64,000 nucleotides of DNA from an uncultured Muribaculaceae bacterium (GCA_964543375.1 CAZIYD010000002.1:7354-71353), one strand, 5' to 3'; counted from the first letter of the stretch, positions 45,241-64,000 are shown. Translations and numbers: made by a program. The notes: generated from the letters alone by a model not told the origin.

Positions 45241-45810
45241 ATGGAAAGAGGAAAAAATTCGCAAGTTATAATCATTGGAATATTGGCGGTTGCCTTGTTG
45301 GTTATGTCAGTAGGTTATGCTGCAGCATTTAACACAACTTTAAACATTAATGGTACAGCTACTGCTAAAGCTGCAAAGTGGGATGTTAGTTTTGATACTG
45401 CAAGTTATGCAGAATCAACTGGAAGCGTACAAGCTACAAATCATAATGTTACTGGAACAACTGCATCTTATACGATTACATTGACAAAACCCGGCGATTT
45501 TTATGAGTTTTCTGTAAACGCTGTTAATGGTGGTACTTTTGATGCTAATCTTACAAAGGTTACTTTAAGTGCTCTTAGCGCTGCTCAAGCTGAATATATT
45601 GAATATTCATTAAATTATGCAGGAACAGAGTATACAGCAACAACTGATAGTCTATCTGTTTTATTGGCTGCAAAAAATGATGGTGACACCGATACTGCTA
45701 CAGTAAAAGTTAGAGTTGAATATGTTCAACCTGCTGATGCTGCAAATTTGCCAACATCTGATCAAACAATAACTTTGACAGCTGCATTGGATTACACACA
45801 AGCACAATAA
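45241..45810 (+). CDS. secreted protein with SipW-cognate (TasA/camelysin-class) signal peptide; Ala/Thr-rich candidate fibre subunit
   Basis: 189 aa. N-terminal h-region then VGYAAAF (cf. TasA GGGTWAAFND, CalY GGGTFAFFSD). Strong RBS TAAGGAGGTAAG. Composition differs from neighbours (GC-richer, Ala/Thr/Gly-rich). Confidence 0.6.
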   Translation: MERGKNSQVIIIGILAVALLVMSVGYAAAFNTTLNINGTATAKAAKWDVSFDTASYAESTGSVQATNHNVTGTTASYTITLTKPGDFYEFSVNAVNGGTFDANLTKVTLSALSAAQAEYIEYSLNYAGTEYTATTDSLSVLLAAKNDGDTDTATVKVRVEYVQPADAANLPTSDQTITLTAALDYTQAQ

Positions 45811-45841
45811 ATACATAATATATAAGTGAAAGGCAAAGATT

Positions 45842-62100: not shown

Positions 62101-64000
62101 AGGTAATGATTCCAATGGTAGAATACTTGGAAGTGCGACTTTAAACTTAAATGGTGGTACGGTTGTAAATTCATATGGTGGTGGAAATCAAGTTGCAGCT
62201 AATGATACTTATATAAATTTAAATGGATCAACATGCACAAATATATATGGTGGGTCGAATCAAAGTGGAGATGTAAATTCTTCTAATATAACAACGACTA
62301 GTGGAACAGCAAATACAATATTTGGAGGTAATAATATTGGTGGAGTTACTAGTGAGGCCAACATTATTGTAAACGGAGGAAGCATAACTACATTATATGG
62401 TGGTGGGAAACTTGCAGACACAGGTAAAACAAACATAGCCTTAAATTCATCTACTTTACTTAATGTATATGGTGGTGGAGAGAGCGCAAATATAACAACA
62501 GATACTAATTTAACGTTAAATGGAAGCACTGTTACAAATTTATATGGTGGATCAAATCAAAGTGGAAATGTGCCTTTATCAAAAATTACAGTAAGTAGTG
62601 GAAGTGCGACTAATTTATATGGAGGAAACAACCAAGGGGGGAGTACTCTTGTTACAGAAATAACTACAAGTGGCGGAAACGTTTCTACACTATATGGTGG
62701 AGGAAAGTTAGCGGACACCAATGAAACAAACATTACTATAAATCCAAACTCTAATATAGGATATGCTTATGGTGGTGGTGAAAATGCTAGTGTTTCTATT
62801 GATACAAATATAAATTTAAACGGTGGAACAATAACAACAATATATGGTGGTTCTAATTTTAGTGGTACTGTTACAAAATCTAATATAATTACTACTGATG
62901 GGGTGGTAACTACTATACTTGGTGGAAATAATCAAGGTGGTACAACTATAGATACAAATATATTAGTAAATGGCGCTAGTATAGGGACTATATATGGTGG
63001 TGGTAATCACGCGGATAGTACTAATAGTTTAGTAACAATAAATAACACATCAAGCAAGATAAACTTTATATATGGTGGTGGAGATGCTGCTAGTGTAAAT
63101 GGTTCAAACATAAACATAAATGGAGGAACTGTTGGTAATACATTTGGAGGTTCTAACCAAAGTGGAACAGTAACAACAAGTAATATAAAAGTTCTAAATA
63201 ACCCTACTATAGATGATATTTTTGGTGGGAATAACATGGGTGGAAATACCATTAATTCCAACTTATCTATAACTGGCGGAACTATAAAGAATATATATGG
63301 TGGAGGAAATCAAGCTGATATATCATCAAATACAAATATAACAGTAAATGGAAGTAACGTTTTAGAAGAAGTATATGGTGGTGGTAAGGATGGTTTAGTT
63401 TCTGGAAATACAAGTGTTAGAGTTACTAATACAACGATTGGAGATAGTTTATATGCAGGTGGAAAGGGAACAACAGCAGTTGTACTTGGTAATACCATAT
63501 TAAATGTTGAGGGAACAACTAATGTAACCAATCATGTTTTTGGTGGTGGTAATGCTGCTGCAACTGGAGATTTAGAAACAAATAACTCAACGAGCACATT
63601 AAATATAGCTGGTGGTACAATAGGTAAGAATGTATATGGTGGAGCAAATACATCTGTTGTTTATGGCATAGTTGGAGTAAATATTGGTTATGGTGTAACT
63701 ACAGTCCCCCTTATAGAAGGAAATATATCTATAGGTGGTACTGTGTTTGGTGGTGGGGAAGCAAATGCAAGCGGTGATGATAACTATGACTACTCTTTTA
63801 TAAGCGTTACAAAAGGAATAACTATAAATATAAAAGAAAATACAATTCACAATATAGATATAGATGGATCTATATTTGGAAGTGGTAACGCGTCATCTAC
63901 TACTGGTTATAGTTATATAAATATAGATAACTATGGAACAAAGACTAATCATAAGAGAAATATATCTATTCAAAGAGCAGATAGAGTCATATTGAATAAT
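59183..64000 (+). CDS. giant beta-helix-repeat surface protein (N-terminal signal-anchor; more than 1606 aa, continues beyond window end; not in the supplied ORF track)
   Basis: Open frame from ATG 59183 (RBS AAGGAGGAATAAAT) to the window end without a stop. N-terminal TM ISVFVLSFVFILIIGFFITIIF. From about aa 600 onward there are tens of tandem 21-25-aa repeats of the form N(I/L)xLNGGT(V/I)xN(I/L)YGG(S/G)NQSG.V..SNI.V, typical of right-handed parallel beta-helix adhesin/passenger proteins. Confidence 0.75.
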   Translation, partial: MKKFIKDYISVFVLSFVFILIIGFFITIIFTKGDLNPPIIVDIGQEQTGVVENVVTLDDRTRDYYFYKGLNYTNSDNGLLPTGVNQNIYPDSKLVDATITYNSNDLNTNKKGYVSISERQDTYIYHKVYPLNDNGTSSLDDDYILIELIENPFTDRPTDKGFNGWYTSYDDVSLSYDSEYYIRYAKVPITYTNDSPNKITIAFNASWIYANVGYTSSGWNTAFNALNTKQMQIVQTHEVVHTPYDMAGYYKEITINRNASCNGYYDYYGNYQTNCRCNSWWGCTYYELIVSEPFSNSNNYYELVNGHMSMINNNTIPPGTYETVFRNDFKEGYNMASFYKQVNIPRYSDQTGYYDIYGNILSGNCNTGNGCNVYKLINYYDSNGNQELLNVDETYYYLATRDTNVIVLDTNLSSTWSSSNNKPFTFTGIYNGTNYNTTWTTNRAIVAYNDTNIENMTISSNASYTTAQATSSRSSSRVFYGNFQNIRIGRGISRYSNYSNFTTVMAGYNLGSGSSSNITKRRLIIESGYYSNLSLSNGSVGTSNTLYIEQKGIYGNDYDRATKNDDNLEIYFCASSAWGSYIRASSIEKNIFDLTVKSGNFGTSRSDYTTGIYVGGRQGGSHYAARMAKIEGGTIYNLIGGPLSNSSMANYNDSYIYVTGGNIDLIIGGAGVSATNGNRLIQVTGGKVNYSVFGGSNGYQGTSSDGTVIGSSFIYIGGTAEIGDQNLINNNSTIFGAEAGSVFGIGNGRNGYPSIGSSSNSNVIVSDHATINNNVYGGGNFGATGISSGENTTTTNIWMYGGLVKGSIYGGGNNNGSGNSSVKATVNISTYGGEVRGSLYGGSNALGTVYGDVNLNLVGGIFKDSVYGGGRGGYLNTSNIGTYVRDAINIEVGSSTSIPIITNNLYGGSAYGNVNTSVRVPTISSNGVNININNIQIQGSIYGGGKGDSTYYPYVAGNILVNVNDGNIPNLFGGNDSNGRILGSATLNLNGGTVVNSYGGGNQVAANDTYINLNGSTCTNIYGGSNQSGDVNSSNITTTSGTANTIFGGNNIGGVTSEANIIVNGGSITTLYGGGKLADTGKTNIALNSSTLLNVYGGGESANITTDTNLTLNGSTVTNLYGGSNQSGNVPLSKITVSSGSATNLYGGNNQGGSTLVTEITTSGGNVSTLYGGGKLADTNETNITINPNSNIGYAYGGGENASVSIDTNINLNGGTITTIYGGSNFSGTVTKSNIITTDGVVTTILGGNNQGGTTIDTNILVNGASIGTIYGGGNHADSTNSLVTINNTSSKINFIYGGGDAASVNGSNININGGTVGNTFGGSNQSGTVTTSNIKVLNNPTIDDIFGGNNMGGNTINSNLSITGGTIKNIYGGGNQADISSNTNITVNGSNVLEEVYGGGKDGLVSGNTSVRVTNTTIGDSLYAGGKGTTAVVLGNTILNVEGTTNVTNHVFGGGNAAATGDLETNNSTSTLNIAGGTIGKNVYGGANTSVVYGIVGVNIGYGVTTVPLIEGNISIGGTVFGGGEANASGDDNYDYSFISVTKGITINIKENTIHNIDIDGSIFGSGNASSTTGYSYINIDNYGTKTNHKRNISIQRADRVILNN

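Follow-up and report, generated by a model that had tools for sequence, protein, structure and literature searches.

What kind of surface structure is encoded by a chromosomal region in which three signal peptidases of the SipW type lie among genes for small secreted proteins? Such a region occupies positions 45241 to 64000 of a 64,000-nucleotide stretch of DNA from an uncultured Muribaculaceae bacterium (GCA_964543375.1, CAZIYD010000002.1:7354-71353; the whole stretch is called the window here), with 15 open reading frames (ORFs), 14 of them on the plus strand, between 45241 and the window end. An initial annotation, made from the sequence alone, had read this locus as one candidate undescribed system of about 19 kb for a SipW-dependent fibre or pilus, built of a major and minor subunits with an adhesin and dedicated peptidases. 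All 15 proteins were scanned with the Pfam, NCBIfam and PADLOC models, relatives of a GTPase gene within the locus were sought in GTDB with one genome per species, and the window proteins were mapped onto 92 loci for gene order and presence counts; paralogy was assessed by hhalign on ortholog families, since all-against-all BLASTP was too insensitive. With moderate confidence, we read the locus as two adjacent and separable surface-fibre modules, namely module A (45241 to 50398), of the AbpX/Tafi type, and module B (50482 to about 66.5 kb), a CoCoPALM system with a SipW-dependent fibre. A multi-subunit SipW-dependent fibre therefore remains the best reading, but its GTPase core had been overlooked, and neither the unity nor the novelty of the system held, as the comparative loci split a variable module A from a strictly conserved module B, module B fits the named CoCoPALM systems, and the architecture of module A has been published for AbpX and Tafi loci.

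Relatives of the GTPase gene occurred in at least 545 stretches of GTDB species representatives; the best 80, which were examined, were 63 to 82% identical to it, and six orthologs from divergent loci were 70 to 84% identical among themselves. The mapped loci shared one gene order, which in the window reads dSip (50482 to 50979), c304 (50983 to 51897), c322 (51908 to 52876), the GTPase (52886 to 54406), an McrC-like protein (54415 to 55557), an active SipW (55526 to 56107), s200 (56100 to 56702), s196 (56692 to 57282, minus strand), s235 (57484 to 58191), s322 (58194 to 59162) and a giant repeat protein (59180 to 64000, where the window cuts it), all on the plus strand except s196. Two optional insertions in this order, a trio (s196-like, a second SipW and u200) after dSip and a helical protein of about 520 amino acids before the giant gene, were absent from the window, and in some loci the giant gene stood upstream instead. 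The McrC-like gene was found in all 92 loci, the active SipW directly downstream of the GTPase/McrC-like pair in 91, c304 in 79, c322 in 78, dSip, upstream of the pair, in 66, and s235 in 59. All ORFs listed in the initial annotation were present where it had placed them, although the minus strand of s196 had gone unmentioned, and the most conserved genes, in the middle of module B (50983, 51908, 52886 and 54415), had not been recognized as such. The surface proteins had median identities of 36 to 49%, versus 63 to 84% for the GTPase; a best-conserved GTPase pair with less conserved surface proteins is what one would expect if a cytoplasmic motor served exposed subunits that evolve fast. Moreover, divergent s200 homologs traced to their contigs had the same neighbours every time.

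The examined loci came mostly from gut or rumen metagenome-assembled genomes (MAGs) labelled Mollicutes, Tenericutes, Bacilli, Erysipelotrichaceae, Clostridia or 'Clostridium sp. CAG:567', with a few under a Muribaculaceae label. Two complete MAG chromosomes carried the full block (L054, OZ006994.1, 1,256,474 bp; L066, OV788638.1, 1,549,218 bp), of which it makes up, by our own estimate, roughly 1.5 to 2%. The extra trio between dSip and c304 was seen in many loci (for instance, L016, L020, L022, L036, L042, L066 and L076), as was an all-helical cytoplasmic protein of about 500 to 530 amino acids beside the giant gene.

The GTPase is a membrane-anchored, McrB-like AAA+ protein. It matched the McrB model NF008457 at an E value of 7e-06 and the PADLOC model PDC-M26A at 3.1e-35, far better than canonical McrB, and its PDB matches were to Escherichia coli McrB only, with Walker A (GISGTGKTS, residue 216), Walker B (ILDEMN, residue 285) and the signature (INNDD, residue 346) aligned. 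No DNA-binding N-domain was detected in it; in that place the N-terminus has one strong transmembrane (TM) segment (residues 60 to 78), a basic patch (RKYMRIRK) and a leucine-zipper/FtsL-like coiled coil, with heptad leucines at residues 88 to 125 in a segment conserved in the six divergent orthologs. Because the basic patch follows the TM segment, the coiled coil is placed in the cytoplasm. The partner protein (54415) combines an N-terminal DUF2357 domain (PF09823, 1.4e-12) with a helical C-terminus; in it and its orthologs, no nuclease domain (PD-(D/E)xK) or Pfam family other than PF09823 was found, and it had no PADLOC match. No literature was found on PDC-M26, possibly a CoCoNuT-clade relative.

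Such a pair has been described. Bell et al. (eLife 2024; PMC11090510) gave the name CoCoPALM to a large McrB clade in which an NxD-clade GTPase carries a fused FtsB-like TM segment with a coiled coil and is accompanied by McrC homologs, usually with a coiled coil and often lacking a nuclease, and by proteins of the signal peptidase family; they classed these GTPase/McrC pairs as pilus-linked and deferred their analysis to a later paper. Module B has the McrB-family GTPase, its fusion to a TM segment and coiled coil (FtsB-like, with weak statistics), the DUF2357 McrC and the signal peptidases, and fits CoCoPALM, named in 2024 and uncharacterised. Such systems are abundant in genomes of the Bacillota type, as here. 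In the literature, we found neither a follow-up on CoCoPALM nor a link between McrB and TasA, and the CoCoNuT paper's supplement yielded no text on CoCoPALM. The published text gives no gene inventory, whereas an active and a dead SipW, four to seven pilin-like paralogs, c304, c322 and the giant protein are resolved here, so that the locus supplies a full parts list for a system that the literature has only named.

The same features bear on two other readings of the pair. Canonical McrBC type IV restriction shares the AAA+ GTPase core and the DUF2357 McrC domain, and the AAA domain belongs to the McrB family and matches a PADLOC defence model as given above, so the pair might be a restriction-like defence island within an expanded tapA-sipW-tasA-like operon, the latter being how the initial annotation had pictured the locus. 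We consider this quite improbable, since the pair keeps the same position in more than 80 loci as the most conserved part of the block, has neither the nuclease in McrC nor the DNA-binding domain in McrB that mark McrBC restriction, consists of a membrane-anchored GTPase and an McrC-like protein foreign to the PADLOC models, is embedded among secreted-protein genes, and is of a kind that Bell et al. regard as pilus-linked. Alternatively, an FtsB/FtsL-like segment would link the GTPase to the divisome, making the block an envelope or cell-division machine of reduced-genome Bacilli. The fused domain is called FtsB-like by Bell et al. (PMC11090510), the GTPase is very highly conserved, and residues 57 to 133 matched FtsL_Actino and ftsL_broad weakly (E values of 0.009 and 0.11); however, these matches lie far below the cutoff, the cytoplasmic coiled coil has the opposite topology to FtsB/L, and fast-evolving surface proteins with a giant adhesin misfit a role in division, so that we hold this reading to be very improbable.

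Two further conserved proteins precede the pair of the CoCoPALM module. The first, c304, is a TM-anchored extracellular protein whose N-terminal part of about 100 amino acids is related to the s196/s200/u200 family (hhalign, 71% against s200 and 94.8% against u200, itself an s196 paralog at 97.4%). It has no cleavage motif of the SipW type but a conserved T.GRYVY, and it drops out of the six proteins for which a SipW-cognate N-terminus had been claimed; the other five (45241, 48068, 56100, 56692 and 58194) stood. The second, c322, is a conserved cytoplasmic protein for which neither Pfam nor NCBIfam nor the PDB gave a match. The Pfam model EAL matched 2 of 36 orthologs weakly (best E value, 0.0099), and a likeness to a degenerate EAL core is seen in the C-terminal consensus GFKFAI.LD..F. 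With just these two weak matches, an EAL-like C-terminal domain was not accepted and is kept as a lead, by which c322 may be a regulator of the system related to cyclic di-GMP.

The three SipW homologs recognized earlier were borne out by hidden Markov model (HMM), hhalign and motif analyses, two being catalytically intact and one a dead paralog. The peptidases 45842 (in module A) and 55526 have the serine of GSM(E/K)P, the histidine of THR and the KG.AN.D region intact, and both exceed the cutoff of TIGR02228 for signal peptidase I of the endoplasmic reticulum (ER)/archaeal type, whereas neither holds for 50482. The canonical enzyme, 55526, has N- and C-terminal TM segments, Ser56 and His99, with E values of 1.3e-21 for TIGR02228 and 1.1e-21 for NF046067 SipW. 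On its own, 50482 (dSip) reached an E value of 0.007 against the SipW model, while its family of 63 orthologs aligned with the SipW family over 162 columns (hhalign 99.5%, E value of 4e-23). It retains both terminal TM helices, but the Ser and His motifs are gone and the TKGDAN segment is deleted across the family, indicating that the protein is indeed dead. An analogous role may be played by SipA of streptococcal pili, which is presumably a relative of the bacterial P-type signal peptidases, unlike the SipW/ER-type 50482. In Streptococcus pyogenes (PMC4049620), SipA/LepA of the FCT pilus locus, likewise a catalytically empty protein resembling a signal peptidase, is essential for pilus polymerisation; that locus is sortase dependent, and the window locus has no sortase or LPXTG motif. 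By this functional analogy, dSip is a candidate chaperone or platform subunit.

The candidate substrates share a TasA-like N-terminus. In 45241, 56100, 56692, 58194 and 48068, a hydrophobic segment is followed by (T/G)(Y/F)A and an aromatic residue at +2, giving predicted mature N-termini of AF, WF, KY, WF and YY, respectively, on the assumption of a cut after the conserved Ala. With such a cut, they would show the trait of the TasA superfamily, an acidic protein with an aromatic residue at mature position 2; the predicted mature isoelectric point (pI) was 4.1 to 4.7 for the four small and mid-sized proteins and 5.07 for 48068. According to the TasA study cited here (PMC10269814), it is the aromatic P2' residue that makes TasA a substrate of SipW rather than of a LepB-type enzyme. 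The motifs of s200, s196 and s322 are conserved within their ortholog families and thus no chance occurrence, and 45241 and 48068 follow the pattern by sequence. Within module B, s200 is a pilin-like, acidic beta-sandwich protein of a family with 523 representatives; A34, W35 and F36 of its NTFA|WF site are invariant in an alignment of 30 sequences, NTFAWFIY is the consensus of 78 with a core at 90% or more, and the C-terminus carries WP(Y/F)ESGDDE.DT.WG followed by A.Q. The s200 domain was also found at the N-terminus of proteins of about 380 to 470 amino acids (P0196, P0215 to P0218 and P0224) and at the C-terminus of others of 415 to 456 amino acids (P0162 and P0166), so that fused or extended subunit variants exist.

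Its neighbour s196, with a predicted signal ending in ETYA|KY and TYAKY conserved across orthologs, is a full-length paralog of s200 (hhalign 97.1%, E value of 7.6e-11, 165 columns). The paralogy proposed earlier among 45241, 56100 and 56692 therefore held for the latter two, the link to 45241 being weak (41.8%). As the sole minus-strand gene, s196 is convergent with s200 (11-bp overlap) and divergent from s235, with 201 bp upstream of it (57283 to 57483); nearly all of the more than 80 related loci have the gene in this orientation, suggesting a separate, possibly higher or switchable, expression of the subunit. The larger secreted beta-rich protein s322 has an invariant TYA|WF..NR (consensus TSTYAWFT.NR), a flexible cleavage region and a C-terminal W.EGQDVDCENN. 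It shares this C-terminal W.EG.D.DC segment, and that segment only, with s235 (W.EG.DPDC..LIGGE; hhalign 93.1% against the s322 C-terminus), as had been noticed in the initial annotation. By contrast with s322, s235 has no cleavage motif and is TM-anchored (residues 23 to 41), making it a candidate base or anchor subunit.

To which class of fibre would these subunits belong? No sortase domain (HMM scans) and no LPXTG-like motif was found in any locus protein, which sets the locus apart from sortase-dependent Gram-positive pili, and it has none of the prepilin peptidase, PilB/PilT-type ATPase and class III signal of type IV pili and archaella. A type IV pilin-like interpretation of the long N-terminal helix in the s200 model was likewise rejected, as there is no prepilin peptidase or PilB, the conserved motif sits where the h-region ends on its C-terminal side, and s322 is disordered over the corresponding segment. 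Across the 15 proteins, the Pfam, NCBIfam and PADLOC scans also returned no TasA/camelysin, TIGR04088, sortase, type IV pilus or toxin families. The AlphaFold2 (AF2) model of s200 (confidence score pLDDT, 81.7) shows a helix followed by an eight-strand sandwich, and the hhalign alignment with TasA, for which a verified PF12389 alignment was built for profile-profile comparison, has a sensible register that pairs A|WF with A|AF, YPGM with KPGD and the C-terminal A.Q with ATQ. Regarding the structural likeness to TasA that the initial annotation had proposed to test, the model matched generic jelly-rolls only (TasA, Foldseek E value of 0.044 and template modeling score of 0.35), and PDB sequence searches with s200, s322, a189 (45241) and c322 returned nothing relevant beyond weak fn3 matches. 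Taken together, the comparisons of profiles and folds are weak pointers to the TasA superfamily, to which the secreted proteins probably belong in the broad sense, but they fall outside the TasA/camelysin family.

Among the closest known arrangements are the tapA-sipW-tasA operon of Bacillus subtilis and sipW-bsaABC of Clostridium perfringens, in which a dedicated ER/archaeal-type signal peptidase likewise stands beside secreted proteins that have a beta-sandwich and an aromatic P2' residue. According to the BsaA model, monomers tethered by their signal sequences undergo donor-strand exchange at the membrane and are then cut by SipW, and several paralogs are encoded in one operon, as in the window. 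Compared with both operons, the window locus has far more genes, including the cytoplasmic GTPase pair, the dead SipW and the giant adhesin candidate, and it has no TapA-like, von Willebrand factor A (VWA) or sortase components and no member of PF12389 or TIGR04088.

The last gene of the block offers a different view of module B. The repeat protein of more than 1,600 amino acids that had been reported at the end of the locus is indeed larger, with a full length of 2,438 amino acids in a metagenomic contig (L001) that carries an identical SipW protein and the same neighbouring genes; orthologs have 2,467 to 2,484. An N-terminal TM segment (residues 12 to 30) is followed by Gly/Asn-rich repeats of about 25 residues (YGGG..N...), with 23 copies of YGGG..N spaced mostly 24 to 26 residues apart, gaps of about 50 residues spanning two coils, and G and N making up 34% of residues 601 to 1500. 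The protein had no Pfam match and no LPXTG motif, and is an adhesin candidate of the beta-solenoid type. Since its gene adjoins the block in 51 loci, where it stands either downstream of s322 or upstream of dSip, and its product has just the N-terminal TM segment and no wall-anchor motif, while s235 and c304 look like uncleaved anchors, module B could instead be the apparatus that exports, matures and anchors this adhesin, with the small beta-sandwich proteins as a short stalk or collar close to the membrane and the GTPase extracting or folding the giant. This is doubtful, as there are loci without an adjoining giant gene (for example, L007/L047, L040 and L063), and paralogous subunits with cleavage motifs and folds resembling those of donor-strand filaments fit a polymer better.

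Module A is separate from this conserved block; its genes are variably present, and relatives occurred in only 2 of the mapped loci (L012 and L054). Its first product, a189 (45241 to 45810, plus strand), is a small secreted acidic beta-sandwich protein and a candidate fibre subunit, with a predicted signal end of GYAA|AFNTT, a mature N-terminus (AFN) that is the same as that of TasA, and a mature pI of 4.16. Weak fn3 matches (Pfam, 6e-05, below the cutoff; PDB FN3con, 5e-4) and hhalign values of 41.8% against the s200 family and 13.8% against TasA were obtained for it. Next comes the polytopic signal peptidase I of the SipW type (45842 to 46981, plus strand; TIGR02228, 1e-22, above the curated cutoff of 51.85 bits), in which the catalytic domain, with Ser283 and His321 kept, is C-terminal to a polytopic membrane domain, as had been proposed; a strict Kyte-Doolittle scan found 5 TM segments in this domain, and about 9 were counted by eye. 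The third product (46993 to 48081, plus strand) is a DUF5305 protein (PF17231, 1.8e-10, above the cutoff) and putative signal peptidase I accessory subunit, with TM segments at residues 10 to 28 and 244 to 262 and a cytoplasmic tail. The last (48068 to 50398, plus strand) is a secreted multidomain protein of 776 amino acids and a candidate tip or adhesin, with a SipW-type signal (GYA|YY), an N-terminus resembling those of s196 (hhalign 75.4%) and s322 (65.5%), and immunoglobulin (Ig)/fn3-like repeats with weak fn3/Big_13 matches.

This architecture is that published for the AbpX and Tafi fibre loci, which fall within the TasA superfamily (bioRxiv 10.64898/2026.01.04.697558; PMC11821415), where a dedicated polytopic signal peptidase I and a DUF5305 "SPase accessory" stand beside genes for minor subunits and a tip protein; module A likewise has a small acidic subunit, the polytopic peptidase, the DUF5305 protein and a large tip-like protein. 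The accessory proteins published for these loci (TafG and its AbpX-locus counterpart) have an ecto-domain, two TM segments and a cytoplasmic tail, which is the topology of 46993, and a189 has the aromatic residue at mature position 2. There are also differences, as position 4 of a189 is Thr rather than acidic, 45241 has no significant sequence match to TasA or other solved fibre subunits, and the host here is a low-GC uncultured Bacilli lineage.

The tip-like protein of module A also raises the question of a conflict or defence system, in which a membrane McrBC-like module would sense invasion and control secreted effectors. The C-terminal third of 48068 (49475 to 50395) has a weak Hint/intein-like match (intein_Nterm TIGR01445, E value of 0.069; Pho RadA mini-intein, 0.036), with CLAKGT... 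at residue 484, SHSVF and ...YNIIANNLL, followed by about 150 residues with no assigned function; it could be a self-cleaving or polymorphic-toxin-like module on a tip protein. Besides this similarity, the GTPase clade has relatives (CoCoNuTs) that are predicted defence systems. Nevertheless, we regard such a system as improbable, because the Hint-containing protein lies in the variable module A and is missing from most loci, no toxin or immunity domains were detected in the Pfam, NCBIfam and PADLOC scans, and patchy defence islands would not typically be distributed like the block, which was present in the 80 examined loci, under several lineage labels, and in two complete MAG chromosomes (1.26 and 1.55 Mb).

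For a module B that builds a SipW-dependent fibre, we propose the following route. Pre-subunits would enter the membrane by the Sec pathway, be retained there by the h-region and polymerise on a membrane platform; SipW would cut after (T)(Y/F)A and release an aromatic-rich N-terminal strand, which would complement the beta-sandwich of the next subunit by donor-strand exchange on the model of TasA and BsaA. Without cleaving, dSip may serve as a chaperone or platform, like SipA in streptococcal pili, the uncleaved s235 and c304 may form the membrane base, and the giant beta-solenoid would be the adhesive payload, while the cytoplasmic, TM-tethered GTPase/McrC pair would gate or power assembly. 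The data establish the gene content, the catalytic motifs, the paralogy, the synteny and the distribution of the block, and from these the cleavage, the polymerisation, the roles of the subunits and the function of the GTPase are inferred.

Several points weigh against this picture. The two profile checks suggested in the initial annotation were negative, with no locus protein matching PF12389 (Peptidase_M73) at an E value of ≤0.1 or TIGR04088 at ≤1, although the inclusion of the latter model in the NCBIfam release is unconfirmed, and s200 reached just 43% (local) and 54% (global) against the TasA profile, with the other families below 14%. The CoCoPALM membership rests on a description of two sentences that gives no accessions, and with regard to the NxD signature, the residues N347-N348-D349-D350 align gaplessly to NTAD of E. 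coli McrB and also fit NxD plus a second D, so that NNDD is indistinguishable from NxxD. Donor-strand exchange among the subunits is something that monomer models cannot show, expression and cleavage of the locus proteins are predictions, and the role of the GTPase is speculative, as fibres of the TasA type need no nucleoside triphosphatase (NTPase).

The boldest version of this reading is a tentative possibility, with distinctly less than an even chance of being right: a membrane-tethered GTPase hexamer derived from McrBC, with the McrC-like protein as a plug, would drive or gate the donor-strand assembly of a heteropolymer of the TasA superfamily carrying a 2,400-residue beta-solenoid adhesin, with retraction being conceivable, and the product would be the main attachment organelle of RF39-type gut Bacilli with reduced genomes. 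The current view of TasA-like donor-strand fibres is that they self-assemble extracellularly with no energy source, and, to our knowledge, McrBC motors are known from nucleic acid restriction only. If true, CoCoPALM would rank as the third kind of pilus machine coupled to an NTPase, and it would be the first link of a restriction-system motor to the biogenesis of an extracellular fibre and the first energy-coupled TasA-like fibre; a gene block joining the two would point to a new route of building or controlling appendages. The system recurs across several hundred uncultured gut species, and its proposed pairing of an McrBC-type motor with a TasA-like fibre can now be tested directly with the parts list. 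As far as we know, the carriers are frequent members of human and ruminant gut communities that nobody has grown, and they are suspected of relying on partners. Thus, their attachment machinery is a practical lead for cultivation and ecology.

With regard to its surroundings, the window, of about 26% GC, includes dnaA (18817 to 20166), dnaB, rlmH, a uracil-DNA glycosylase (UDG) gene, tRNA-His and the signal recognition particle (SRP) RNA, indicating chromosomal DNA near oriC. Within the locus, intergenic gaps range from -32 to +83 bp, except for the 201 bp between s196 and s235; genes so closely spaced suggest no more than three or four co-transcribed units. A scan of the locus for promoters and terminators gave 125 matches versus 106 expected and was uninformative in DNA of this GC content, and Rfam models identified no riboswitch or other element near the locus. 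A polysaccharide lyase family gene (42198 to 43283, minus strand; PF14099, 3.3e-18) lies just upstream of the locus beside tRNA-His and bears no relation to the block in other genomes. The GC and AT skews change sign at about 18 to 19 kb, beside dnaA and a dnaN-sized ORF next to it, and the replication origin is likely at this switch (about 18000 to 20200), from which the fibre locus lies 25 to 45 kb away on the leading strand.

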